A stretch of DNA of 64,000 nt from Candidatus Multivorans sp. (GCA_965247095.1 OZ251997.1:4000001-4064000); one strand, 5' to 3'. Positions 13,723-39,913 are shown, counted from the stretch's first letter. Notes: generated from the letters alone by a model not told the origin. A program made the numbers and translations.

Positions 13723-14709
13723 ATGCTCTGGAAGGGATTTCAACGCCCGAAGCGGATCGAAATCGATACCGAGACTCTGACCGACACGTATGGAAAGTTC
13801 TCGGCTCAGCCGTTCGAACGCGGCTTCGGTTCGACCGTGGCCAATGCACTGCGTCGTAGCCTCCTGTCGGCAATCGAGGGCGCCGCGATTACCGCGGTGC
13901 GGATCGACGGCGCGCTGCACGAGTTCTCTTCACTCGAAGGGGTGGTAGAGGACGTCACGGACATCATTCTGAACCTGAAACAGGTGCCGCTGCGGTCCTT
14001 CGACGGTACGACGCGCGTGATTACGATGGATGTGTCGGGCCCGCGCGAGGTGACCGCCGGTGACTTCAACGGCGACCCGAGCGTCGAGATTCGGGACCCG
14101 AACAGCAAGGTGGCGACGCTGAACGAACGGGGTCGGCTCCGCCTTGAGGCGCAGGTCAAGAACGGACGCGGGTACGTCGGCGCGGACCTCAACCTCGACG
14201 AGTCGATGGGGATCGGCTGGATACCGCTCGACTCCGTCCACAGTCCGGTGAAGCGCGTGAATTACCGCGTGGAAGCGGCGCGACTCGGCCGGACCACCGA
14301 CTACGAGCGACTGATCCTCGAGGTCTGGACGGACGGAACGGTGACGCCGGAAGAGGGAGTCGCCCGTGCCGGCGCCCTGTTGCGCGACCACCTTACGATC
14401 TTCATCGACGCCGAGGAGAGCCTTGTCGTCGAAGCGGCGGCCGAGGAGGAAGTCGATGGGGGCGACATCGGCACACTGCTCCAGAAGGAGATCGACGATC
14501 TGAACCTGAGTGTTCGTTCGGCGAACTGCCTGAGGAACGCGAACATCAACACGGTGGGCGACCTCGTCGTGCGGAGCGAGAAGGAGATGCTGGAGACGAA
14601 GAACTTCGGCCGCAAGTCGCTCAATGAGATTCAGGAGGTGCTCGACAGGATGGGGTTGTCCTTCGGCATGGAGGTTCCGGAGAACGCGGAGAGCGGCGTC
14701 CAGGCCTAG
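13723..14709 (+). CDS. rpoA: RNA polymerase subunit alpha
   Basis: [33 protein letters not shown]; ATG 13723 after AGGAG. Confidence 0.99.
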
Positions 14710-14752
14710 CGGCCGCTGGACCACTCTAGAGCTTTCCCGGGAAGGAGCGAAG

Positions 14753-15115
14753 ATGCGTCACGGAGTTGGCTACAAGAAACTCGGCCGGACCACGGCCCAC
14801 CGGCGGGCCATGTTCCGCAACATGCTCGCCTCCCTGGTCGTACACGGCCGGATCCGGACCACCCTGGCGAAGGCGAAGGCCCTTCGTCCGGTCGCCGAGA
14901 AGCTCGTCACCAGGAGCCGCGAGGACTCCGTCCACGCCCGGCGCCGGGTGCGCCGCTGGCTCCCCAATCGCGACCACGTCAAGAAGCTGTTCGACGAGAT
15001 CGCTCCCCGCTACGCTGACCGCCCCGGCGGCTACCTGCGCATCACCAAGCTCGGCCCCCGCCGCGGCGACGCCGCCGAACTGGCCGTCATCGAGTTCGTC
15101 GACACCGACGAGTAG
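14753..15115 (+). CDS. rplQ: 50S ribosomal protein L17
   Basis: [31 protein letters not shown]; SD AAGGAG. Confidence 0.99.
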   Translation: MRHGVGYKKLGRTTAHRRAMFRNMLASLVVHGRIRTTLAKAKALRPVAEKLVTRSREDSVHARRRVRRWLPNRDHVKKLFDEIAPRYADRPGGYLRITKLGPRRGDAAELAVIEFVDTDE

Positions 15116-15126
15116 CGGCCCTGGGA

Positions 15127-15196
15127 ACCCGGGTGGCGCGGTCCGCGCCACCCGCGACACACTCCGTGCGCCCGTCACCGGGCGCACGGATGACAC
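15127..15196 (+). repeat. 70-bp twin-hairpin element nested in a REP-like palindrome
   Basis: Same-length copies at 17965-18034 and inverted at 39834-39903; bounded by AC...AC. Confidence 0.85.
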
Positions 15197-15248
15197 GCGG
15201 GCGTCTCGCCCGCATCCGGAAACGGCGTGGCGCGGCGGCGTCGGTTGC

Positions 15249-15433
15249 ACCCGCCTGCAGCGGGCCGAAGGAGGGGGTCCCAGCGGCCGCTCGCGCTTTC
15301 GTGGTGAAAAGGGAAGGGTGCGCTCGCTTCGGTCGGCTGCGCTCCGGTTTGGCGTCAGACGATGAGTGGACGTCGGCCGTCGCTTGCCGACAGCCCGCTG
15401 GGACCCCCTCCTTCGGGCCACTGCAGGCTGGAC
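15249..15433 (+). repeat. ~185-bp structured repeat, copy 1
   Basis: Long terminal inverted repeats plus invariant core; 4 copies in window. Confidence 0.9.
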
Positions 15434-15569
15434 GTTGTCGGACGCCGAGGCGGGAGTCCGCGAGGTCGCCTTCATGCCGTTGGTACCGTAGAGTTGGCTT
15501 CGTCGCGACCCCGTTCGGGACCGCTGTTCGCCGGATCGCGCAGTGTGTTTCTCGCACTACACTGAGACC

Positions 15570-16439
15570 ATGGTAAAAGGAAGTTCACTCGTGAAGCCCC
15601 ACTTACTCCCCGCGCTAGCGCTGATAGTGGCGCTACCCGCCGATGCCTATGGCCAAGCGAAGCTCTCTCCCTCGTGGCTAGAGTGTTTCTCGCCCAGCGA
15701 GTGCGAGGTCCGCGTGTTTAGGGCTGGCTGGCACAATAGGAAGGGGCGTTTGCGACTACTCGCGGAACGGGCTGCTAGCACCTGTCAGGTGGCAGGGTAT
15801 TCGCACTATGTTGCAGGGGCGCCCATTAGCGACGTTCGGCACCTCATCCAGCGCGTGTACTTCACACACGACGATGCGCCGCCTGCTCGTCCCTGCTCGT
15901 TCTCCGCGAGTCCTGAACTTGAGGCTGAGGCCAAAGAGATGGCAAGGGTCAACGGTTACTCGTGGCCGGTGGGCCAGGTGCCACTCGAGACAGAACCGTC
16001 GTGGACCTTCGAGCCCGGGGAGAACGACTGGGGCGAGGCAGTGCCGTTCTTGGACGAGATCGCTTCGCCCTTCGTCTCTGCCTTGCGAAGTGACCAAGAT
16101 GACCTTGTCGGGAGTGTGTACCTGACGCGAGACTGCTCTGCCACCTTGACTGTAGGCCGACTCGGTGCTGAACCGGGCGATTGGTGGGCCTACACCGACG
16201 GTCAGTCCGGCTACGACGACCGAGTTTTGGAGGTCCGAGTAGATGGCGCTACGGTCAAGAATCAGGGCCAGCGAGTGACCATACCGACTGCTGGCCTAGT
16301 CGCGTCGAGTGAGCGAACTTTCGGCGTAGCTGTTCGATCTGCGGAGTACGAGGACAACGCAGCGTTCGAGTGGACCGTTGCCGACCGCGACCGGGCGACC
16401 ATAAAGAGACACTTCCCCCACTGCGTAGAGTCGCCTTGA
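15570..16439 (+). CDS. Hypothetical secreted protein
   Basis: ~290-codon ORF with signal-peptide-like N-terminus (KPHLLPALALIVALPADAYG) and atypical codon usage; start may be GTG 15591. Confidence 0.7.
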   Translation: MVKGSSLVKPHLLPALALIVALPADAYGQAKLSPSWLECFSPSECEVRVFRAGWHNRKGRLRLLAERAASTCQVAGYSHYVAGAPISDVRHLIQRVYFTHDDAPPARPCSFSASPELEAEAKEMARVNGYSWPVGQVPLETEPSWTFEPGENDWGEAVPFLDEIASPFVSALRSDQDDLVGSVYLTRDCSATLTVGRLGAEPGDWWAYTDGQSGYDDRVLEVRVDGATVKNQGQRVTIPTAGLVASSERTFGVAVRSAEYEDNAAFEWTVADRDRATIKRHFPHCVESP

Positions 16440-16771
16440 TCGTCAGCAGCTCCCACCAAGGGTCCCGGGCCTCACCCTCCGAGGGCGGGGCGCTATGGAA
16501 GAAGCGGCCTCAGGTCCTCTCCTACGGGCTCGTTTCGACGTAGAAGCGGCACACGACAGGTCGATTTTAGCGATGCCGGTCGGGCTCGGCTCCCGCAGAG
16601 GCGTCGCCGCCGAGCCTTTATCGAATCCGTCGGCGGCGACGAGTAGCTGGATGCGCGCCGATGGCGCCGCAGTCGCTGGAGTGTGGCGGCGTCGGTTACA
16701 CCCGCCTGCAGTGGACTTCTACTCAAGTCTCGTCCGAGGGTCAATGACCGAGGAGTGCATAGCCCGACGAC

Positions 16772-16954
16772 CTCCAGCCTGCTGTGGTCCGGGGAGAGGG
16801 TCCCAGGGGGCTGTCGGCAAGCGACGGCCCATGTCCCTCCATGAACCGACACCAAACCGGAGCGCAGCCGACCGAAGCGAACGCTCCCTTCCCTTTTCAC
16901 CCAGAAAGCGTGAGCGGCCCTTGGGACCCTCTCCCCGGACCGCAGCAGGCGGGT
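16772..16954 (-). repeat. ~185-bp structured repeat, copy 2 (inverted)
   Basis: Shares core CCGGAGCGCAGCCGACCGAAGCGA and terminal stem with copy 1. Confidence 0.9.
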
Positions 16955-16980
16955 ACCGCCGAGATGCTTCGGCCGGCTAG

Positions 16981-17304
16981 CTAGCTCGACGCCGCCGCTG
17001 GAGCGGCTCGAGCCGGATCTACTCTGATGGTGACCTTGGCATCGGCGTCCAGCGCGGCCAACATCTTCATCAGACGATCCAGCGTGAAGCGTCCGAGGTC
17101 GGCGTTGCGGATGCGAGAGAAGTCCGCCGCGGCGAACCCGCTCAGCTTCGCCGCTCTGCGTACGGTGAGCCCACCGTCGTCCAGCACGGCAATGATCCGC
17201 GTTGCGAGGACAGCCTTGGCCTGCTTGAGGTCGGCCTGAGGGTCGCCGAGGTCCCGGAAGATGTTCCCACTCCCGTGAATAAGCTCGATGTCTTCTTGAC
17301 TCAA
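16981..17304 (-). CDS. HTH (XRE) antitoxin, HigA-like
   Basis: GSGNIFRDLG, DFSRIRNADLGRFTLDRL; TTG start overlaps toxin stop (TTGA). Confidence 0.88.
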   Translation of the reverse strand: MSQEDIELIHGSGNIFRDLGDPQADLKQAKAVLATRIIAVLDDGGLTVRRAAKLSGFAAADFSRIRNADLGRFTLDRLMKMLAALDADAKVTIRVDPARAAPAAASS

Positions 17305-17651
17305 GGCAGTAGCTCCTTTCTCAGCCTTGTCAGACGCTTCCGGATCAGGTCGATCTCGCTCTTCGGGGTCCTGATGCCGGATTTCGACTTCTTCTGGTAC
17401 GCGTGGAGAACCCACAGGGACCCGGCCATCTGAGTCAGGTAGACGACCCGGTAGGCATCGGTCCGATAGCGAACGGCGATCTCCAACACACCGGAGCCGA
17501 GACCTGTGAGTGGCTTGGCGATGTCGGCCTTTCCTCCCTCCGCAGCGATTGTCAGGGCGGTGTTCATGCGGTCTCGAACGGTGCCCGGGAACTTCTCGTA
17601 GGCCTTTCGGGCTGCCCGAATCCACCCGATCGGCCGCGTGTCACCGTTCAC
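17301..17651 (-). CDS. RelE/ParE-family toxin, HigB-like
   Basis: KPLTGLGSGVLEI, AYRVVY, VLHAYQKKSK; toxin-first order. Confidence 0.9.
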   Translation of the reverse strand: MNGDTRPIGWIRAARKAYEKFPGTVRDRMNTALTIAAEGGKADIAKPLTGLGSGVLEIAVRYRTDAYRVVYLTQMAGSLWVLHAYQKKSKSGIRTPKSEIDLIRKRLTRLRKELLP

Positions 17652-17725
17652 CCCGGCATGTTGTCAGATATGACTACGCCTGTCAGCCCCCAACCCCCGG
17701 CTTAGCTGGTGAGCTTTGGCCATGA

Positions 17726-17953
17726 CCGGTTGCCGAGAAGATCATCACCCGGAGCCGCGAGGACTCCGTCCACGCCCGGCGACTGGTCCGTCGCTGGCTC
17801 CCCAATCGCGACCACGTCAAGAAGCTGTTCGACGAGATCGGGCCTCGCTTCGCCGACCGCCCCGGCGGCTACCTGCGCATCACCAAGCTCGGCCCCCGCC
17901 GCGGCGACGCCGCCGAACTGGCCGTCATCGAGTTCGTCGACACCGACGAATAG
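17726..17953 (+). pseudogene. rplQ: 5'-truncated second copy of rplQ (last 75 codons plus stop)
   Basis: 228 bp with 14 nt differences from 14888-15115; in-frame TGA directly upstream, no start codon. Confidence 0.95.
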
Positions 17954-17964
17954 CAGCCTTGGGG

Positions 17965-18034
17965 ACCCGGGTGGCGCGGTCCGCGCCACCCGCGACGCAC
18001 TCCGTGCGCCCGTCACCGGGCGCACGGATGACAC
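17965..18034 (+). repeat. 70-bp twin-hairpin element, copy 2
   Basis: Near-identical to 15127-15196. Confidence 0.85.
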
Positions 18035-18081
18035 CCGGGCGTCTCGCCCGCATCCGGAAGCGGCGCGACGGCGTCGGACCC

Positions 18082-18265
18082 ACCCGCCCGCAGCAGGCCG
18101 AAGGAGGGGGTCCCAGCGGCCGCTCGCGCTTTCTTGGTGAAAAGGGAAGGTTCGCTCGCTTCGGTCGGCTGCGCTCCGGTTTGGCGCCGGTTGATGAAGG
18201 GATATGGGCCGTCGCTTGCCGACAGCCCGCAGGGACCCCCTCCTTCGGCCCACTGCAGGCTGGAC
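18082..18265 (+). repeat. ~185-bp structured repeat, copy 3
   Basis: Aligns with copy 1. Confidence 0.9.
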
Positions 18266-18481
18266 GTTGTCGGGCACCGTGCCGACGGTAGGCGCACACC
18301 GGACGCTGCCTAGCGTTGGCGTCGAGAGCGCCCCACATCTTCATCAGCCGACTGCGGACGTAAGGCGAGAGTCCCTATTGGTCCACATTGTCGGCTTTCT
18401 GGCACGTGAGACGGGCATTTCCGTCAGCTAGTCGCTCAACTGGAGTTGCCCCGGTTTGGTGGACAGTTTGTGTTTAGGGAA

Positions 18482-19330
18482 TCAGGCGGCCTCTCGGTAC
18501 GCCTCTTCGAAGTTGACGGGTGAGCGTTGTCCGATCGCGGAATGGCGACGATGAGTATTGTACCAGCCCTCGATGTAGCGAAAGAGTTCCGCCTTCGCTT
18601 CGGCGTGATTTCGGAACGTTGTCTGGTCGAGCAGCTCGCACTCGAGGCTGGCGAAGAAGCTCTCGGCCATGGCGTTGTCGTAGCAATCTCCGACGGAACC
18701 CATCGAGAGTGCGATGCCGGCATCGCGGCAGCGGTTCCCGAACGTCAGGGAAGTGTACTGGCTGCCTTGATCGGAGTGGTGGATCACGCACTCGGGTCGC
18801 CGCTGGGCAATCGCCATCTCCAGAGCCCTGAGCACGAGGTCGGTTGCCAGAGAAGAGTTCATTGCCCAGCCGACGATTCGCCGACTGAATACGTCCAGGA
18901 CGATCGACAGGTACACGAACCCGGCAAGCGTCGGAACGTAAGTGATGTCCGCGACCCACAGTCGATCCGGGGTCTCAGCCACGAACTGCCGATCAACGAG
19001 GTCCGGCGCCGGGCGAACCGAAGCGGCGCGACGGGTCGTCGTCGGCCGTTTGCGGCGGCTGATGCCCGCCAGGCCGGACTCTCGCATCAGTCTGGCAACG
19101 CGCTTGCGGCTCACTGCGAACCCACAGTCGGCCAGTTCAGCCTGAATCCTCGGCGCCCCGTAGGTCCCTCGGCTCCGTTCGTGAATCGCCCGCACCCGCT
19201 CGGCGAGAGCGGTGTCCGACTTCTCCCTGGCCGACCGCGGGCGCTTCAGCCAGGCGTAGAACCCGCTCGTGGAGACGCCGAGCACGCGGGCCATCGTCGT
19301 GACGCGGAACTCGGCCTGGTGCGCTCTCAT
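18482..19330 (-). CDS. IS3 transposase OrfB (DDE integrase core)
   Basis: WVADITY, HHSDQGSQY, CYDNAMAESFF. Confidence 0.96.
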   Translation of the reverse strand: MRAHQAEFRVTTMARVLGVSTSGFYAWLKRPRSAREKSDTALAERVRAIHERSRGTYGAPRIQAELADCGFAVSRKRVARLMRESGLAGISRRKRPTTTRRAASVRPAPDLVDRQFVAETPDRLWVADITYVPTLAGFVYLSIVLDVFSRRIVGWAMNSSLATDLVLRALEMAIAQRRPECVIHHSDQGSQYTSLTFGNRCRDAGIALSMGSVGDCYDNAMAESFFASLECELLDQTTFRNHAEAKAELFRYIEGWYNTHRRHSAIGQRSPVNFEEAYREAA

Positions 19331-19635
19331 GAACCGGAAGACCCCTTCGGTTCCGTCTCCCGAGCGAACCAGGCCGTTGCTTTTGCCAGGATCTCCCGCT
19401 CTTCCCGCAGCCGGCGATTCTCCCGGCGCAGACGGCGCAACTCCTCACGCTCCGCCGTCGTGCTCCCGTCGCTGCGGCGACCCTCGTCCCGGTCCGCCTG
19501 GGCGACCCAGTTCCGGATCGACTGCGCTGACGACTCGAACTCGCGGGCTAGTTGGTCCGGGCTCCGCCCGGACCGGACCAGATCCACCATCTGCTGCCGG
19601 TACTCTGCTGGGTACCGGCTCCTTCTTCTCGACAT
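19327..19635 (-). CDS. IS3 transposase OrfA (HTH)
   Basis: YPAEYRQQMV, ELRRLRRENRRLREEREILAKA; ATGA overlap with orfB. Confidence 0.93.
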   Translation of the reverse strand: MSRRRSRYPAEYRQQMVDLVRSGRSPDQLAREFESSAQSIRNWVAQADRDEGRRSDGSTTAEREELRRLRRENRRLREEREILAKATAWFARETEPKGSSGS

Positions 19636-19982
19636 CGTGGATACCTCCTCTTCCAAGAATGAGGTGTCCACCAAAACGGGTCAAGCTCACCATCGAAGTG
19701 GATCAGGAGTTGGTTGGGCGCCAAAGGAAGTCTCGTATGAGAGCCGGATGGGACAGTACTCCTTGCTTCTCTCTCAGCCGGAACTCGATGCGGTCGCCGG
19801 GGCAACACGGGGATGAAGTTACGGGCGACCGCCGTGTGGCTGAGCTCCACGACCATGCCCGGATGGTAGCAACCTGCTTCGACCGAGATGGCTGCCTCGG
19901 TCCAGCAAGGGGCCGGGCCGCCCAACTCGGTCAGAGAGGATCGCCAGGATCGGCACTCCGGCCGGACGGTGGGTCTGACCCG

Positions 19983-20495
19983 CTACGCGCCGAAGCAGTC
20001 CAGGGCCAGCTCGGAGGTCTTCCGCTCGTGCCATCTGTGCGTGTAGTGCCGGCGAAGCGGCGTACTGCACCGATGGCCGACAGCGACCAGGATCTGCTCG
20101 AGCGAACTGAGTTGCTCGCGGAATCCCAGCATGATGCCGCATCGGAGGCTTGCGTTGTCGGGGCCGCAGAACAGCCAGTGGCTGTCGGTCCTGGTCACGG
20201 CGTGAGCCCAGAGAGATCTCTCCCCATCGTCTAGCTCGGGCAGGTCCGATCTGCTCATCTCCAGCGACGCGTAGTCGCGGTTGCTGACCGTATGGACCGC
20301 GTCGAGCGACTGGCGGAGTTGCTCGGGATCGATGTGCTGCTGGAAGTCCCGGTTCTGATGCCCGGTCTGCGTCTCGGACACGCAGACATCCGTGGTCTGC
20401 ACGCGGTATCCGCCCGCGAGAGCGGTCCATGCACTGGCGCGGTGACACTCGATGATGACGTTGGCGTCGACCAGTACGATGGAACGCTTGTGCAC
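19983..20495 (-). CDS. PIN-domain-like protein (putative nuclease/toxin)
   Basis: N-terminal VLVDANVII and LDDGERS motifs; lies downstream of the ImmA/IrrE gene. Confidence 0.72.
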   Translation of the reverse strand: MHKRSIVLVDANVIIECHRASAWTALAGGYRVQTTDVCVSETQTGHQNRDFQQHIDPEQLRQSLDAVHTVSNRDYASLEMSRSDLPELDDGERSLWAHAVTRTDSHWLFCGPDNASLRCGIMLGFREQLSSLEQILVAVGHRCSTPLRRHYTHRWHERKTSELALDCFGA

Positions 20496-20536
20496 GGTCT
20501 TCGATCAGGAACGAGCAGGTTGGAGACTCGGAGCGC

Positions 20537-21688
20537 TCAGATCTCGACCGGGCATGTGAGCCCATGGCTGGCAAGAAGTCGGTCCACGCCCTCGATCGTG
20601 CAGTCGAGCAACGTTGCAGCGCGGCGCATGGAGAGCAACCCCTGGTCGAGCGAGCGGGCGATCACAGCCAGGAACTTCTTCGAGAATGGCGGAGGAGGGC
20701 TGTTTCTCACGACCCAGGTCGTTGCCTCCCTGGATACGGTGGGCTGACCGTTGTTGCGGAGGCGGTCCGGAGGCAATGACCGGGCAGTTTGCCTGGAGAT
20801 CTGACGAAGATCGACGAGCCGCCAACGAAGGGCAGACGAGCTGACGCGGAGCGTCTCGGCGGTCGAGTTGAGTCTCTCGATCAGGGCATCCAGGGCCAGA
20901 TCGGACCAGGGGCCGTCCTGCATCAACGTGGCCTCGGGCATGAGGATCGCGGAGGCGAACTTGTCGGCGAGTTGCTCGGCACGGTCGCGGCTGGTGTCGC
21001 GGGCCGACTCGAGGTGTTGCGGGGGCATGGCGTCCCAGGTGAGGAGATGGAACAGTTCATGCGCGAGGTCGAAGTGACGGCGACCCTCCGCCTCATCTCG
21101 GTTGATCAGCGCCACGTCCAGGCGTGGCAGTCGGCAGGCCGCGCCGGAGATTCCGGGTGGAGCGTCGACCATCAGGACCAGGACACCCAGACGGTCGTCC
21201 ATCGTCTGTGAAAGGCGTTGGGCGGGAACGGGACCGAGATCGAACTCGGCGGCGAAGCGGTTTCCGGCCCACACGGCTTCCTCGTAGCTCGACTGCTTCG
21301 TCAGCCCGAGCGTTCGACGCAGCGGAGGCGGCGCCAGGTCGAGCCGTGTTGCCAGGTGCAGGTGGGCCGCGATCCAGCGGCCGGCACGGTCCTCGTAGTC
21401 GCGGAGTTCGGCGTCGTTGACGCTGGCCCGGCCTCCGGTGTGGGCCAGCCGCCATGAGAAGCGCCCATCGCCGGCGAGGAGAAACGGGTCCGTGAAGTAC
21501 CGAACCGGCGCGTCGAGTTTGTCGACGGCGAGTAGCAGTTCCTCCGCCGTTACTCGGCGATTGCCGGTTTCGATGGCCGATACCGTTTGGCGGTCCTTGA
21601 AGCCGAAGAGGCGGGCCAGTTCTTCCTGGCTGAGGTGGCGCCGCTTCCGCAGCGCCTTGATCCTCGCACCGATGAGGGCGGTCGTCAT
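20537..21688 (-). CDS. XRE-HTH fused to ImmA/IrrE (M78) metallopeptidase
   Basis: IKALRKRRHLSQEELA HTH; RHFDLAHELFH zincin; EQLADKFASAILMP. Confidence 0.92.
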   Translation of the reverse strand: MTTALIGARIKALRKRRHLSQEELARLFGFKDRQTVSAIETGNRRVTAEELLLAVDKLDAPVRYFTDPFLLAGDGRFSWRLAHTGGRASVNDAELRDYEDRAGRWIAAHLHLATRLDLAPPPLRRTLGLTKQSSYEEAVWAGNRFAAEFDLGPVPAQRLSQTMDDRLGVLVLMVDAPPGISGAACRLPRLDVALINRDEAEGRRHFDLAHELFHLLTWDAMPPQHLESARDTSRDRAEQLADKFASAILMPEATLMQDGPWSDLALDALIERLNSTAETLRVSSSALRWRLVDLRQISRQTARSLPPDRLRNNGQPTVSREATTWVVRNSPPPPFSKKFLAVIARSLDQGLLSMRRAATLLDCTIEGVDRLLASHGLTCPVEI

Positions 21689-21820
21689 GGCGCGGTCGCT
21701 CCGTGGGTGGAAAGGGTCTTGTGTGGGGCTCGACGCTGATTCGCTACGGTACACTCGAAACAGACGACACGCAAGGAGATCTTGCAGATAAAAGAGTGCG
21801 GAACGAGGGCCGCCCGCGGG

Positions 21821-21958
21821 CTAGCCCCCGCGTGGAATGGACGAGCCGGCGGCCGCCAGCCGCCCAGCACAGGACACCGGCTTCAGCGGCTGGTTCGACT
21901 GCGCTGGCGGCATCCCCAAGGCCCTGAGGATTCTCCGTGCCTCTTCAACGTTGGCCAA
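21821..21958 (-). pseudogene. Stub of a BsuBI/PstI-like restriction endonuclease
   Basis: TTG start overlapping the MTase end; ANVEEARRILRALGMPPAQSN resembles the family N-terminus, then unrelated sequence and a stop at codon 46. Confidence 0.6.
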
Positions 21959-23579
21959 CGGCGACCTTCCGTGGGATGCCGGCGGACAGAATGTCCGCGA
22001 TCAACCGGTCCAGATTCTCTATCGGGTCGGCGAGTTGCCGGACACGCTCTCCGAGCGCGACGATGGTGTCGTGAGCCGGCAGCGGCATTGCGCGCAGCTC
22101 GGTCGCGTTGACCTGCGTGTTGCCGTTGAGACACCTGAAGTAGGTGTCGAGCAGGCGGCTGTTGTAGAGCGCGGCCAAGCCCCATGCCTCTTCGTCAGAG
22201 AGCGAGCCGGTGCGTCGGTAGATGTAGTTCAGGTGGTTTTCGAGACCCACGCGCGGCACGGACATGGACCGGGCAAGGTACGGCGCCGCGGCCAATCGGC
22301 GGGCCTCCTCCTTCGCGCTGAATCGCCGCATGAGAACGTAGTTGCGGTTCGGAAGGAGCAGTGCCTCGGCGCCTTGGCGCTTGATGTACTCCGGCTTGTG
22401 CCGATGCAGCGGCCAGGTGACCTGCATCGGACGCACGTGATTCATCCAGAGCAACGGAACGTGTGTCTGCGGCACGCGACCTTCACGGTCGACCAGGGTT
22501 CGCGCGCGGAAGGGCACTACGGGTCCCGTGGAGATACCGAAGCCCAGACTGGCCAATGTGTTCGGCCATGCGTCGACCAGGTCAAGAACCTGAGCGTCCT
22601 CGTCGGAGACGGGTAGTCGCAGTACGCGGTCGCGGTCATCGAGATCAAGCGCCGCCTGAAGCGACGTCATACGGCGGTGCGACTCGTTCAGATCGGCAAC
22701 CCCGCGGCTGCTGGATATCACCAACGGAGCTTGGCGATCTTGCCGCGGGCCCTTGAGCCGAGTGCCGTGGAGAATGACATTCTCCTGCAGGACTTCGTCG
22801 CGTTTGAATGCCTCTCGACGCGATCCGAATGCGTGAACCAGGGTCGGACGAATGAGGTTGAAGAAGACCTGCCGGAACTGCCGGAAGTACAAGCCGGAGG
22901 CAAAGCTCCTCGGCGTGATGGAGATGAAGTCGCCACCCGGGCGGACCAGGACGGCGCTGACCGCCATGAACAGGGCGTAGATGTTCGGTTGCCCATGAAC
23001 CACGTTTGAAGCGAGAACCGCCCGCGGGTCGCTCTTGTTGATCTTGAGGTACGGCGGGTTGGAAATGGTGATGTCGAACTCGCGGTCACCTGACTCGTAC
23101 GGAACCAGACTGCCTTCACGCCGGAGTGCTTCCGCGTGCGCCATGACGAAGTCTCTCGACTCGATGCGCGCCGCAAGGCGGATTCCATGCACCTCCATGC
23201 ACCACTCCCGGAGGTAGCCGAGGCCCACCTTCAGAGGGCCGGCCAGTTCGGCGTCTAGCTCGTAGGCGACAAGGTCAATCCGGTTCGTCGATGGGTCGCG
23301 ACCGGCGAGCGCTTCAACGGCCGCGCAGCAGAGGATGCCCGCACCGGCGGCAGGGTCCAAGACCCGAAGGCGGTCACCGCAGACCTGGATCTGGGCCGCC
23401 ATGAAGTCAGCGGCTCCCACAGGCGTCAAGTAGAGGCCGTGCTGCTTTCGGTGCGTCTCGGACTTGGAGGCGACGTGGTATTGGCCGATGCGGTCCGCGT
23501 ACTCGGTAGGTCGCTCCCCCGGCGCTGGAGGGGGGATGAAGCTAAGGCCGGTCGGTGTGCGGCTGGGCTCCACGACCAT
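21945..23579 (-). CDS. Type II N6-adenine DNA methyltransferase, BsuBI/PstI (Eco57I-domain) family
   Basis: LDPAAGAG, NPPY, STGPVVPFR, RRFSAKEE, ENHLNY, NGNTQVNATEL. Confidence 0.9.
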   Translation of the reverse strand: MVVEPSRTPTGLSFIPPPAPGERPTEYADRIGQYHVASKSETHRKQHGLYLTPVGAADFMAAQIQVCGDRLRVLDPAAGAGILCCAAVEALAGRDPSTNRIDLVAYELDAELAGPLKVGLGYLREWCMEVHGIRLAARIESRDFVMAHAEALRREGSLVPYESGDREFDITISNPPYLKINKSDPRAVLASNVVHGQPNIYALFMAVSAVLVRPGGDFISITPRSFASGLYFRQFRQVFFNLIRPTLVHAFGSRREAFKRDEVLQENVILHGTRLKGPRQDRQAPLVISSSRGVADLNESHRRMTSLQAALDLDDRDRVLRLPVSDEDAQVLDLVDAWPNTLASLGFGISTGPVVPFRARTLVDREGRVPQTHVPLLWMNHVRPMQVTWPLHRHKPEYIKRQGAEALLLPNRNYVLMRRFSAKEEARRLAAAPYLARSMSVPRVGLENHLNYIYRRTGSLSDEEAWGLAALYNSRLLDTYFRCLNGNTQVNATELRAMPLPAHDTIVALGERVRQLADPIENLDRLIADILSAGIPRKVAVGQR

Positions 23580-23628
23580 CCGTCGATGGTAGCAAGGGTG
23601 CCAGTCGCCGGCTTCGCGCACCGTCGAC

Positions 23629-23814
23629 ATCCAGCCTGCTGTGGGGACAGGGAGAGGGTCCCAAGGGGCTGTCGGCAAGCGACAGCCCATGTCCCCCCAT
23701 CAGCCGACAACCAACCGGAGCGCAGCCGACCGAAGCGAACGCTCCCTCCCCTCTTCACCAGGAAAGCGTGAGCGGCCTTTTGGGACCCTCTCCCTCGGAC
23801 CGCAGCGGGCGGGT
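23629..23814 (-). repeat. ~185-bp structured repeat, copy 4 (inverted)
   Basis: Same core and terminal stem as copy 2. Confidence 0.9.
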
Positions 23815-23854
23815 GCGTCCGATAACGGTCCGGTCGCCGCGGCGCCTTCGGCGG

Positions 23855-25951
23855 CTAGTCCTCTCCCTCCGCCCGCTTCGCTTCGGCGATGATCTTTTCT
23901 TGGATCTGCCGGGGGACTTCCTCGTAGTGGGAGAAGCCCATCGTGAAGCTGGAGCGGCCCTGGGTCATTGAGCGCAGGGCGGGGGCGTAGGTCAGCATCT
24001 CGGCCATGGGCACGGTGGCCTTGACGATCTGGGCGTTGCCCTTGGCTTCCATGCCCTGGGGGCGGCCGCGGCGGGAGGACAGGTCGCTCATGATGTCGCC
24101 CATGAAGTCCTCGGTGGTGTTGATGTCGACCTGCATCACCGGTTCAAGCAGGGTCGGGGCGGCCTTCGCCATGGCGTCCTTGAAGGCCAGGGAGCCGGCG
24201 ACCTTGAAGGCTATCTCGGACGAGTCGACGTCGTGGTACTTGCCGTCCTGGAGCCGGACCCGGAAGTTGCCGACCGGGTAGCCGGCCAGGTAGCCGCGTG
24301 CGGCTGCCTCGAGCAGGCCCTTCTCGACCGCGGGGCGGTAGCTCTGGGGGATCGAGCCGCCGAAGATCTCGTCGACGAACTCGTAGTCCTCCGGGGTGGG
24401 GACGGGCTCCATCGTGATCGTGCAGTCGGCGAACTGGCCGCGGCCGCCGCTCTGCTTCTTGTGCCGACCGTGGCCGACCGCGGGCCTCCTGATCGCTTCG
24501 CGGTAGGGCACCTTGGGCGGGTGCAGGATGACCTCGACCTTGGACCGGGCCTTCAGCTTGGAGACCGCGATTTCGACGTGGAGCTGACCGGCGCCCGAGA
24601 GCAGGAACTCTCCCGTCTGCGGGTCGCGCCCGGCCCGCAGGCTCGGATCCTCCTCGACCAGCCGGAGCACAGCCTCGCCGATCTTCTCTTCATCGCCCTT
24701 CGTCTTCGGCTCGATGGCGAACGAGATCGCGGCGACCGGAGGGGTGGGAAATCCGAGCCGAAGCGGCCGTTCGCGGCTCGTGATCGAGTCGCCGGTGACG
24801 CTGCTCTTGAGCTTCGCCACGCCGCCGATGTCGCCCTCGAGGAGTTCGGGGATGTCCTGGCCGGTCTTGCCCTGCATGTGCATCAGGTGGCCGACGCGTT
24901 CCGCCTCCTCGTGCCGGGGGTTCCAGTAGCCGGTGTCGGAGGTCATGCGGCCCGCGGCCACGCGAAGCAGGGAGATGCGGCCGGTGAAGGGGTCGTTCAT
25001 GGTCTTGAAGACGATCGCGCTGACCGGCGCGCCGTCGCCGCGCTCGAGTTCTACGGGTTCTCCGCCGAGATCGGCAGCCGGCATCGGAGGCGCGCCCATC
25101 GGCGACGGCAACAGCTTGACCACCGCGTCGAGCAGAGCCGAGTTGCCGACGCCGTGGCTGGCGGACGACATGGTGACCGGGAACAGCGCCCGGTTCCTGA
25201 TTGCGTTCTTGAGCCCCTCGACCAACTGGTCCTGATCGAGGTCGCCCTGGTCGAAGTAGGCCTCCATCAGGTCGTCGTCGCTCTCGGCGACCGCTTCTGT
25301 GAGCTTTCCCCGCCACTCCTGGATCTGGTCCGCCAGCTCTGCCGGCGGCTCGGACCCCTGACTGCGGCCGTTTCCGTTGTGGTCGTAGAGATAGGCCTTG
25401 CCGCTCAGCAGGTCGACGACGCCGGTGAAGTCCTTGCCGGCGCCGATCGGGATCTGCACCGGCAGCGCCATGCGGTCGAAGTTCTGCTGAAGTTCGGCGA
25501 TGCAGCCCTCGAAGTCGATGTTGTCGCGGTCCATTTTGGTCAGGTGCAGCATCATCGGCTGCTCCAGCCCCGCCGCGACTTCCCAGGCCTTTTCGGCCAT
25601 GACCTGGGTCGGCGATGCGGCGTCCAGGCACAGCAGGGCGGCGTCGGCGGCCCGCATGCCCGAGCTGGTCTCGTGAACGAAGATCCCGGAGCCGGGACAG
25701 TCGATCAGGTTGACCTTGTGCTCGCCGGATCCGTCCGACCAGGGCGTGTAGCAGACGGCGAGGCCGATCGAGATGCCGCGGCGGATCTCCTCCTCGTCGA
25801 AGTCGGTGACGGTGTTGCCGTCTTCGACCCGGTTTTGCCGGTTGAAGACGCCGCCGGTGTAGAGCAGGCCGGCGAGCAGCGTCGTCTTGCCGGCGTCGTT
25901 GTGTCCGACGACGGCGAGGTTGCGTATCTTGTCCGAACTTTCGAGTTGCAT
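23855..25951 (-). CDS. Elongation factor G paralog (EF-G2-like)
   Basis: GHNDAGKTT, RGISI, DCPG, KKQSGGRGQF, HDVDSSE, LRSMTQGR. Confidence 0.93.
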   Translation of the reverse strand: MQLESSDKIRNLAVVGHNDAGKTTLLAGLLYTGGVFNRQNRVEDGNTVTDFDEEEIRRGISIGLAVCYTPWSDGSGEHKVNLIDCPGSGIFVHETSSGMRAADAALLCLDAASPTQVMAEKAWEVAAGLEQPMMLHLTKMDRDNIDFEGCIAELQQNFDRMALPVQIPIGAGKDFTGVVDLLSGKAYLYDHNGNGRSQGSEPPAELADQIQEWRGKLTEAVAESDDDLMEAYFDQGDLDQDQLVEGLKNAIRNRALFPVTMSSASHGVGNSALLDAVVKLLPSPMGAPPMPAADLGGEPVELERGDGAPVSAIVFKTMNDPFTGRISLLRVAAGRMTSDTGYWNPRHEEAERVGHLMHMQGKTGQDIPELLEGDIGGVAKLKSSVTGDSITSRERPLRLGFPTPPVAAISFAIEPKTKGDEEKIGEAVLRLVEEDPSLRAGRDPQTGEFLLSGAGQLHVEIAVSKLKARSKVEVILHPPKVPYREAIRRPAVGHGRHKKQSGGRGQFADCTITMEPVPTPEDYEFVDEIFGGSIPQSYRPAVEKGLLEAAARGYLAGYPVGNFRVRLQDGKYHDVDSSEIAFKVAGSLAFKDAMAKAAPTLLEPVMQVDINTTEDFMGDIMSDLSSRRGRPQGMEAKGNAQIVKATVPMAEMLTYAPALRSMTQGRSSFTMGFSHYEEVPRQIQEKIIAEAKRAEGED

Positions 25952-26106
25952 CGACGCTCCCGTCACTGGCTTCGCGGGCCTTGTGTGGGGAGCCCGCTCG
26001 AGTCGCGGTTGGCCGGAATCCGGCCACCCTGCGCGGCGCGAATCTCAGGCTTGGAAACAGCCGCAGAAGATACCACGCGGCCGGCCGGCGAGGGCTCCCG
26101 CGGCGC

Positions 26107-28923: not shown

Positions 28924-29547
28924 ATGGACGACTTCCTGACCGAGCGGCAGAAGCAGATTCTCGACTTCGTGTGCGAGTTCGTTTCCGTGCGGGGCGTGGC
29001 GCCCACCCACCTGGAGATCCGGCGCCGCTTCGGTTACCGCTCCTACGGGACCGTCCACAAGCACCTGAAGCTGCTGCGGCAGAAGGGCTACCTGCGGGGC
29101 GGCTGGAATCAGAAGCGCGGCCTGGAGCTGACCGAGAAGACGCTCCGTTCCCGTCGTCCGGTGTCGAATGCGGTGCCCTTCCACGGCCGGATCGCGGCCG
29201 GCCAGCCGATCGAGGCGGTGGCCGGCGTCGACGACCTGTCGGTGCCGGAGCACCTGCTGGGGCGCGGTGCCGCCGGCCGCCACTACGTTCTTCAGGTGGA
29301 AGGCGACTCGATGATCGACGACGGCATCTGCGACGGTGACCTGGTGGTCATAGCAAGGCGTGAAGATGCCCACTCGGGCGAGATGATCGTGGCCCTGGTC
29401 GGCGACGAGGCGACCCTCAAGCGGTACTACCCCGAGGGCGACACGGTTCGCCTGCAGCCGGCGAACCGGGAGATGGGTCCCATCTACGTGCCCGCCGACC
29501 AACTCAGTATCCAGGGCAAGGTGGTCGGCCTTATGCGTCGATACTGA
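28924..29547 (+). CDS. lexA: SOS repressor LexA
   Basis: LTERQKQIL wHTH, GRIAAGQP cleavage site, GDSM (Ser), ATLKR (Lys). Confidence 0.97.
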   Translation: MDDFLTERQKQILDFVCEFVSVRGVAPTHLEIRRRFGYRSYGTVHKHLKLLRQKGYLRGGWNQKRGLELTEKTLRSRRPVSNAVPFHGRIAAGQPIEAVAGVDDLSVPEHLLGRGAAGRHYVLQVEGDSMIDDGICDGDLVVIARREDAHSGEMIVALVGDEATLKRYYPEGDTVRLQPANREMGPIYVPADQLSIQGKVVGLMRRY

Positions 29548-29608
29548 GGGCGTGCAAGCCCTCAGCATCCAGGGCGTCGTGGTCGGCCTGATGCGTCGAT
29601 ACTGAGGG
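29503..29608 (+). repeat. Tandem duplication of the last 15 codons of lexA
   Basis: 29503-29547 vs 29561-29605, 40/45 identical. Confidence 0.92.
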
Positions 29609-33302: not shown

Positions 33303-33448
33303 CTTGCATGGAACAAACCCCTCGTCCTGGCCGGCCCTTCGTGCCTAATGCGGGCGAGACGCCCGCGTTCCCCAGGGCGGACCGAAGTAGCGACCACGCT
33401 CTTACGGTGTTCCCTGCGCGACAGCGCAGCGATACCGCTGTGGGTACT
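33303..33448 (-). mobile_element. Putative ~145-bp non-autonomous IS110 derivative carrying a REP-like palindrome
   Basis: Begins CTTGCATGGAACAAAC like the IS end and ends with the same terminal 40 bp as the full IS. Confidence 0.6.
33348..33377. repeat. REP-like palindrome ATGCGGGCGAGACGCCCGCGTTCCCCAGGG
   Basis: Related copies near 15197-15215, 18035-18053 and 51986-52003. Confidence 0.75.
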
Positions 33449-33500
33449 TGCATGGAACAAACTGATGCTGGTTCCTTTTGGGTGAAGCGGATTCCGGGAT

Positions 33501-35010: not shown

Positions 35011-35151
35011 CAACTCTACGCATCCTGCAACGACCGCAGAATCCACCACCCGTTCCCTGCGCGACAGCGCAGCGATACCGCTGTGGGTACTTGCATGGAA
35101 CAATCCCTGTTCCCTGTGCGTCAGCGCGGCGCGGACGCCGCGACTCGACTC

Positions 35152-39779: not shown

Positions 39780-39833
39780 CGCGGCGTCGCTCTGAAAGCT
39801 GGACTTCCTGCCTGTGGGACCGTATCCTGCGGC

Positions 39834-39903
39834 GTGCCATCCGTGCGCCCGATGACGGACGCACGGACTGGTTCGCGAATGGCGCGGACCGCGCCATTCG
39901 GGT
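39834..39903 (-). repeat. 70-bp twin-hairpin element, copy 3 (inverted), in the tRNA-Pro leader
   Basis: Ungapped match to the reverse complement of 15127-15196 with a compensatory GG/CC to AA/TT change. Confidence 0.85.
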
Positions 39904-39913
39904 ACCGGTGCGG

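Follow-up and report, generated by a model that had tools for sequence, protein, structure and literature searches.

Repeat A, a large structured palindromic intergenic repeat family specific to one genus of sponge-associated Acidobacteria

The stretch of DNA analysed here (the window, 64,000 nucleotides) comprises bases 4,000,001–4,064,000 of the genome of Candidatus Multivorans sp., a single 4.62-Mb contig with 67.7% G+C, and harbors four copies of a ~205-bp element that was named repeat A (hereafter A) and whose boundaries were taken from a profile fit. The results support the description of A as an unannotated, structured and dispersed element, a family of large palindromic intergenic repeats that is specific to one genus of sponge-associated Acidobacteria. 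Pairing in the long terminal stem of A is maintained through compensatory changes, including some observed at a single locus, and at orthologous sites the stems and core of A vary less than the third codon positions of rplQ. The orientation of A is tied to local transcription without a visible replication-strand pattern, which argues against a purely single-stranded-DNA mechanism. With a probability of about 0.55, A is a new and large representative of the palindromic intergenic repeats, a class that includes repetitive extragenic palindromes (REPs), bacterial interspersed mosaic elements (BIMEs), enterobacterial repetitive intergenic consensus (ERIC) sequences and miniature inverted-repeat transposable elements (MITEs), and forms a protective or terminating hairpin in the 3' untranslated region (UTR). 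Positions are those of the window unless the genome is named, and the A sequences of the window are as follows.

15236..15443, + strand: repeat A copy 1, 121 bp 3' of the rplQ stop, with repeat B in between
16685..16714, + strand: 5'-end fragment of repeat A, about its first 30 nt, consisting of the GGCGTCGG flank and the outer 5' arm
16759..16965, − strand: repeat A copy 2, 16 bp 3' of the stop of an HTH_37 antitoxin gene (nhmmer E 6e-51)
18068..18277, + strand: repeat A copy 3, 3' of a duplicated rplQ 3' fragment and a B copy (nhmmer E 4e-52)
23616..23829, − strand: repeat A copy 4, 26 bp 3' of the stop of an EF-G paralog (nhmmer E 4e-49)

The original prediction had described four ~185-bp copies and an end fragment, all of which were recovered with profile boundaries slightly wider than those first drawn. 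Its placement of every window copy 3' of a gene end in the sense orientation (rplQ, the HTH_37 antitoxin, the rplQ 3' fragment and the EF-G paralog) was also confirmed. Copy 1 was detected with an nhmmer E-value of 8e-53 and a covariance-model score of 192 bits, and the 30-nt fragment is 93% identical to it over its length (blastn); remnants consisting of the 5' arm alone are likewise present at other sites of the genome. Copies 1 and 3 are not independent, because both lie within a 565-bp direct repeat.

Searches beyond the window revealed 18 full copies of A in this genome (nhmmer E 1e-25 to 1e-53), one further copy split at its core by a 1.36-kb element of the IS110 family of insertion sequences (ISs), and several truncated or remnant copies. 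A covariance model built for A (R1), which gave E-values down to 4.5e-39 in its own genome, was used on genomes of the genus and of other families: A was found in 23 of the 24 Candidatus Multivorans genomes searched, with tens of matches each, whereas of 16 genomes belonging to other families in the order, two gave matches, which were weak. A pattern scan covering one genome per species returned at least 120 loci, and among the matches listed all but two came from acidobacterial metagenome-assembled genomes (MAGs), with titles naming Candidatus Multivorans or Thermoanaerobaculia; the two others (a Nocardia and an Actinomycetota MAG) gave no covariance-model hit for A. From 80 loci of acidobacterial MAGs, 97 covariance-model hits were collected. 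Comparison of the whole window with Rfam at the gathering threshold returned a tRNA alone and no match for A, and a permissive search (E up to 10) of 15100–18400 gave two chance-level hits (VA, 21 bits with a cut-off of 62; nrdJ, 19 bits with a cut-off of 40); the original prediction had held A to be unrecognized, and no family was matched at either threshold. No published description of A was found in the literature searched, in which no paper mentions Candidatus Multivorans; the additional files of PMC3733652, on repeat and terminal-inverted-repeat families including acidobacterial ones, might bear on this.

The predicted fold of A is more stable than that of shuffled sequences on both strands. 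Copy 1 reached −125.6 kcal/mol as RNA of the sense strand (z −6.1) and its complement −68.1 kcal/mol as DNA (z −7.3); in neither case was any of 200 shuffles as stable. The terminal stem is ~40 bp long, with arms of 35–44 nt that are 82–92% complementary; a C/T mismatch close to its outer end is conserved. It encloses a short GCGC/GCGC hairpin (P2), whose loop is G/A-rich, and a ~70-nt arm with the conserved core. The compensatory stem changes reported between the window copies proved to be real: both sides had changed with pairing kept at 19 of 47 pairs among 14 copies of this genome and at 29 of 47 pairs among the 97 copies from other genomes. Compensatory cells in these 97 copies numbered 576, versus 175 after column shuffling and 24–89 with slid partners, and 95.1% of the cells were paired, versus 82.0% in column shuffles, so that the terminal stem is supported in the larger alignment against both controls. 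Helix 3, which forms the middle of the long stem, shows covariation at every one of its 14 pairs. The 97-copy alignment was fitted to the covariance model, which favours the structure; a model-free MAFFT alignment (A1) gave the same result.

Other elements of the original prediction fared less well. The imperfect pairs had been read as G-T wobbles on the template strand, but the cells over the 39 covarying pairs of the 97 copies comprised 3341 Watson-Crick, 55 G-T, 47 A-C and 91 other combinations; G-T and A-C are about equally frequent, and therefore no strand can be named from the mismatches. Thus, of the proposed non-coding RNA (ncRNA) or folding single-stranded-DNA mobile site, the structured, dispersed and oriented character stood, and the choice of strand from wobbles did not. 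The 24-nt core, described as invariant, and the hairpin GGCTGTCG-GCAAG-CGAC are indeed shared by the four window copies, but within the family they mark one of approximately three subfamilies into which the A interiors can be sorted (main split 63 versus 34 of the 97 copies, the window-type core being present in the 34). These subfamilies form local interior hairpins in different registers. Helices 7 and 8 of the alifold model, both interior, vary on one side only and are therefore unproven, and a possible helix between the core and the late segment is hinted at by one three-type pair (GC 55, AT 32, CG 5), with registers that differ among subfamilies. A small open reading frame (ORF) with its start in the P2 loop was also considered, but its frame is shifted by indels that distinguish the copies, and it was dropped.

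The position of A relative to genes is biased on its 5' side: A typically lies between a few and ~50 bases beyond the stop codon of an ordinary gene, for the most part in sense. A solid co-oriented gene stands upstream of 15 of the 19 A copies in this genome and ends 2–121 bp before A or overlaps it by a few bases; of the other four copies, one lies 3' of a gene fragment and the assignment of three is uncertain. The upstream genes encode, among others, a PQQ dehydrogenase, a FadB-like enzyme, an acyl-CoA dehydrogenase, a symporter, and M23 and M28 peptidases. Among 88 full copies from other genomes (the 97 hits less nine cut or partial ones), 49 have a co-oriented stop codon on the 5' side, usually 3–55 bp from A, and 13 have a start there; in 22 the nearest gene on that side is more than 300 bp off, and four have none. 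The 3' side is unbiased (20 stops versus 22 starts). By crude gene calls based on GC3, 125 A copies were sorted into those between co-directional genes in sense (23) or antisense (5), between convergent (15) or divergent (4) genes, with a neighbour more than 400 bp off (55) and at an edge or without neighbour (23); these counts are not independent events, because orthologues are included. The orientation bias is seen between same-direction genes, at 23 sense versus 5 antisense copies. Copies on the + and − strands alternate along the chromosome, and therefore the orientation of A follows the local gene; a replication-strand pattern was not evident by eye from positions and strands, a comparison made without reference to GC skew. 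In total, 59 of 83 A copies lie in conserved synteny. GC content downstream of A is lower in some bins, in an inconsistent pattern.

Comparison of the region downstream of rplQ in 30 species showed A on the + strand after rplQ in approximately 19 of them, and revealed both constraint in place and turnover. Across 14 orthologous rplQ-linked copies, the two stem arms had mean pairwise identities of 0.90 and 0.89, the core one of 0.89 and the late hairpin one of 0.86, versus 0.64–0.67 for the two loops and the 3' flank; the corresponding identity of rplQ was 0.845 at third codon positions and 0.949 at first and second positions. One stem pair of these orthologues can be followed in place from A-T through A.A to T-A, so pairing has been maintained at a fixed locus. 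At the same time, A is polymorphic for presence and absence at orthologous sites. In one species (genome G014) the rplQ and EF-G paralog stops are 45 bp apart with no A between them; another species has only the A(−) adjoining EF-G, and others carry partial, fused or 'mini-A' copies. The relative G052 (locus L040) has no copy 4, the start of its methylase gene directly adjoining the EF-G stop. The reverse case also occurs: A is present in G024 or G016 at several sites where this genome has none, and some such 'empty' sites are occupied by other palindromic repeats or A remnants.

A same-strand motif was found at both ends of A, GGCGKCGG upstream (−13 to −6) and CGTCGG downstream (+5 to +10), within a 3' flank consensus of A-S-G-K-CGTCGG. 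Exact ends could not be defined from the filled and empty pairs, in which the spacers are too diverged or are filled by repeat C, repeat B or mini-A remnants. Mini-A forms, in which the outer stem ends are joined and the GGCGTCGG and CGTCGG flanks are kept, occur at genome positions 496769–496838 and ~2332380 and at locus L065, and may be deletion products across the hairpin.

Two further hairpin families, B and C, are associated with A or with its surroundings, and the features concerned are listed below.

15124..15198, + strand: repeat B, a two-hairpin REP-like unit of 68–75 nt, between the rplQ stop and A copy 1
17962–18034 and 39832–39906: further B copies of the window (inverted or direct repeats I5, I6 and D1)
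genome 3597839–3598105, 3041975–3042259, 1954449–1954715, 964600–964860, 1639500–1639770 and 289560–289780: further B sites
genome 2898256–2898492 (outside the window): region of the single gene for a Y1 transposase of the REP-associated tyrosine transposase (RAYT) type, 226-aa frame, PF01797
genome 1495216–1496560 (outside the window; locus L015): IS110-family element in the core of an A copy, whose transposase begins MANQRLHAVAGIDVGKHW

B was found nested in A at one fixed point, which separates the inner end of the long stem from the small hairpin, in all 14 composites (eight detected by pattern and six by eye), and the B-bearing copies span three subfamilies, including orthologues with and without B; this suggests that B, as a RAYT-linked REP, has a site- or structure-specific insertion preference. 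The Y1 gene is flanked by 131-bp inverted blocks, 92% alike, that contain B and C hairpins (C being a third hairpin family of the form CTGGGAACGCGGGCATCC..GCCCGC) and no A, in a REPtron-like arrangement; therefore B and C represent RAYT-linked REPs and A is something else that is targeted by B. No A was found near four other Y1 loci examined. A RAYT as the mobiliser of A was rejected, as the presence of PF01797 does not track A: the domain was detected in 25 of 41 genomes of the genus and had no match in the A-rich G024. The IS110 element within A is single-copy in the genome, with CT at both junctions, and G016 carries an intact A at the locus where the copy of this genome holds it. Both the REP-like B and an IS110 element use A as a favoured insertion target, and A copies bound variable DNA between rplQ and EF-G. 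In L063, another IS110-like gene lies right after rplQ, within a C-type repeat. A composite transposon was also considered for pairs of A(+) and A(−) spaced ~1.1–1.3 kb apart and was rejected, the interiors of two such pairs in this genome being unrelated; the pair that recurs in many species is one orthologous locus, at which this genome keeps a 5'-arm remnant.

The window copies bracket an accessory region between rplQ and the EF-G paralog, as had been proposed, and this interval ranges from the 45 bp mentioned above to ~8.7 kb here. Its features are as follows.

14624..15115, + strand: rplQ, ribosomal protein L17 (Pfam PF01196, E 7e-38), upstream of copy 1
14888–15452 and 17726–18284, + strand: 565-bp direct repeat, comprising the last 228 nt of rplQ, B and A
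16981..17651, − strand: toxin-antitoxin pair, Gp49/HigB-like at 17301–17651 and HTH_37 antitoxin at 16981–17310 (Pfam PF05973, PF13744)
23855..25966, − strand: EF-G paralog (Pfam EF-G domains), upstream of copy 4

In this genome the interval contains a hypothetical gene, the HigB/HigA-like pair, an IS3 element, an ImmA/IrrE-like gene and an Eco57I-like methylase. The two 565-bp repeats are 87–94% identical (94% in block D1, 92% in D4 and 87% in D2) and bracket 2.27 kb with a hypothetical secreted-looking ORF, the A fragment, A copy 2 and the HigB/HigA-like pair, a layout consistent with that expected from single-crossover integration of a circle with such homology. Two full rplQ copies 2.8 kb apart occur in G051, and G055 has a partial second rplQ. 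A Pfam scan of 13 ORFs in 14.6–27.6 kb revealed no tyrosine recombinase and, as a mobile element, only the IS3, in line with the absence of a visible integrase noted at the outset. The ImmA/IrrE-like gene (HTH and M78 domains) lies at 20537–21754 and the Eco57I-like N6 methylase at 21945–23690; the latter is common to G024, G052 and G055 at ~92% identity, with differing neighbours. A 64-nt repeat (..CCACGACCAT..GATGGTAGCAA; 80% identity) occurs at 19809–19872 and 23532–23595, just upstream of the hypothetical gene 19819–20574 and of the methylase start, and the sequence after rplQ in L061 resembles it; accessory genes may have this repeat in common as a leader or promoter region. Elsewhere in the window, 52-nt direct repeats (GTTCCCTGCGCGACAGCGCAGCGATACC...; 100% identical) at 33409–33460 and 35052–35103, 1643 bp apart, may mark where an inserted element ends or attaches, and adjacent 48-nt repeats at 29503–29550 and 29561–29608 are 90% alike, 58 bp apart, each with inverted ends CTCAGTATC...GATACTGAG.

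Relatives of the region, with 88–95% likeness, are contained in the contigs of four metatranscriptome runs. Two of the runs each have one contig that begins at the 3' end of EF-G and reaches the 5' arm of copy 4, while a single contig of a third run covers rplQ through B; most of 15.3–16.7 kb and 20–23.7 kb was left without cover. These contigs do not tell strand, ends or level, and may stem from DNA carry-over, so co-transcription of A with its upstream gene is only weakly hinted at.

Bertels and Rainey reportedly worked on REPs and their REPIN forms in 2011. Di Nocera et al. (2013; PMC3733652) describe REP/BIME-type units as lying at most ~20 bp from the upstream ORF, between unidirectional or convergent genes, and as thought to act as RNA; they also describe CGTC-tagged REPs as a superfamily without a known transposase. 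A resembles REPs, BIMEs and REPINs in being an extragenic palindrome that follows closely on ORFs and lies mostly where the adjoining genes are unidirectional or convergent, in its hairpin kept by paired changes, and in its mosaic nesting, lineage specificity and long persistence; a CGTC-containing motif adjoins its palindrome as well. The differences lie in size, branched conserved interior, direct flank motifs and strong sense bias: A is ~205 bp long with a 40-bp stem and a 120-nt structured interior, unlike the 20–40-nt hairpin or ~100-nt doublet of a REP, and its tags are direct, one on each side. Accordingly, A is extragenic and near the 3' end of the upstream ORF as a REP should be, but it is not the short 20–40-nt palindrome or inverted doublet with a GTAG or CGTC tag that defines REPs and REPINs, and its copies do not flank a cognate RAYT gene.

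ERIC sequences (also called intergenic repeat units, IRUs) and Correia (nemis) elements are hairpin-forming MITEs that are co-transcribed with neighbouring genes. Like A as it is read here, they are imperfect palindromes of 100–200 bp in transcribed intergenic DNA that give long RNA hairpins, with orientation-dependent effects on neighbouring mRNAs and with old copies conserved at orthologous sites. A differs from them in having a conserved branched structure as its interior instead of a simple spacer, in showing neither a TA nor any other target duplication nor a full-length IS, and in lacking a demonstrated sequence relation. The terminal inverted repeats (arms of 35–44 nt) and the presence/absence polymorphism at orthologous sites are those of a MITE, and neither target-site duplications nor a transposase-encoding full-length element was found. 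The integron attC site likewise folds as an imperfect palindrome 3' of a gene, is fixed in orientation and combines outer boxes that are conserved with a mid-stem that varies, but A is larger, stands behind core genes, forms no arrays and carries no wobble or mismatch signal for one strand; neither an integrase (13 ORFs scanned) nor a co-oriented cassette array was found, A being dispersed in both orientations. Nor does A have the form of an intrinsic terminator, which combines a GC-rich stem with a U-tract.

Placement, orientation, hairpin conservation, REP nesting and lineage restriction thus match REPs and BIMEs, and A is set apart from REP/REPIN, MITE and attC elements by the properties above; therefore, A is best read as a new large member of the palindromic intergenic class. 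Because the space between the stop codon and A is too small for a terminator, A would be read into the 3' end of the upstream mRNA, where its long hairpin would constitute a 3'-end barrier or processing structure that stabilises the message or brings transcription or decay to a halt. Such a role would entail purifying selection in place, and A would spread as a non-autonomous DNA element moved in trans.

Several observations weigh against this reading. Mismatches on the sense strand show no G-U preference (G-T 55 versus A-C 47), where selection on RNA only predicts otherwise, and wobble pairs make up only ~1% of the main stem. No U-tract follows the A stem, none of the six terminator-like sites in 14500–24500 coincides with A, and some species have small hairpins with T-rich tails between rplQ and A, by which read-through may be limited; to these is added the ambiguity of the metatranscriptome contigs in strand, ends, level and possible DNA carry-over. 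No transposase is associated with A in its flanking genes, at the Y1 loci or in the distribution of PF01797, and its mobility is inferred from distribution only. No target-site duplication was detected in the flank-similarity test (2.96 of 10 within copies versus 2.56 between copies) or in alignments of filled and empty sites, which are comparisons between species in which old duplications could have been erased. A full-length parent element was absent from this genome and the fetched loci (the scan did not extend to the whole genomes of relatives), in which the only split copy holds the unrelated IS110 element and no other split pairs occur. Finally, stem conservation in place could also stem from gene conversion among copies, as illustrated by L041, a chimeric copy with arms from two types.

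The same features can be read at the level of DNA, with A as the substrate of a single-strand- or hairpin-recognising enzyme (HUH/Y1-like or other), the stem kept since only paired copies propagate, and the post-gene position a by-product of target choice or tolerance. This explanation is somewhat unlikely, yet it accounts for pairing that is strictly Watson-Crick with G-T about as common as A-C, for end motifs on the same strand (GGCGKCGG and CGTCGG) that contain CGTC and resemble cleavage or target tags, for the single entry point of the RAYT-linked B in 14 of 14 composites, for the IS110 element with its CT junctions in the core, and for the DNA fold (z −7.3). What speaks against it is that orientation tracks the local gene, with alternating + and − copies (again by position, not against GC skew), and that stem and core are conserved in place across 14 species, which selection at the level of the element does not explain for immobile copies; in addition, A flanks no Y1 gene in this genome or at four other loci, the A-rich G024 has no PF01797 match, and no recent near-identical A copies were seen in this genome. 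A related idea, distinctly unlikely as a whole, is that A is a host-retained 3'-end module, read by a host factor as RNA or DNA via its stem and pentamer-like core, that also organises genome plasticity as the preferred docking site of B, as a docking site of an IS110-family element and as portable homology by which accessory DNA gets in between conserved genes; if true, the 565-bp duplication of rplQ', B and A around the toxin-antitoxin cassette and the convergent A pair bounding the rplQ/EF-G interval would be its examples.

Conservation of core and hairpins, covariation in P1 and P2, and constraint in place with sense orientation are also what an independent ncRNA gene would show, namely a ~200-nt small RNA, 3'-UTR-derived or with its own promoter, folded as a three-way junction and acting in trans, and one that would be undescribed given the lack of an Rfam match. 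Such a gene is quite improbable here: a trans-acting RNA would not usually exist as tens of diverged copies per genome that fall into three subfamilies with differing interiors, truncation and interruption of copies are frequently tolerated, wobbles are not enriched, and a scan of 14500–24500 restricted to sigma-70-like promoters found none. The attC-like reading, in which folded recombination sites mark mobile cassettes moved by an unseen recombinase, had been the analogy of the original prediction and is highly improbable. Each copy does follow one gene in fixed orientation, the window copies punctuate accessory genes (the toxin-antitoxin pair and the methylase), one-sided flank matches in this genome favour the 5' side by 13 to 2, and the outer stem has a conserved mismatch; nevertheless, A stands singly behind ordinary chromosomal genes (for PQQ dehydrogenase, FadB-like enzyme, acyl-CoA dehydrogenase, peptidases and rplQ), is dispersed in both orientations without arrays, is syntenic in 59 of 83 copies, has no tyrosine recombinase recognisable by Pfam among the 13 ORFs of 14.6–27.6 kb, and at ~205 bp is larger than attC sites, which measure 57–141 bp.

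A adds a covariation-supported repeat family with a working covariance model to the description of sponge symbionts that are little studied and automatically annotated, and its masking will prevent spurious ORF calls and explain assembly breaks. The fixed insertion point of B and the CT junctions of the IS110 element provide natural targets for studying both enzyme families. The size, sense bias and in-place conservation of A make it a test case for whether REP-like elements are kept for the host, through control of mRNA 3' ends, or for themselves.

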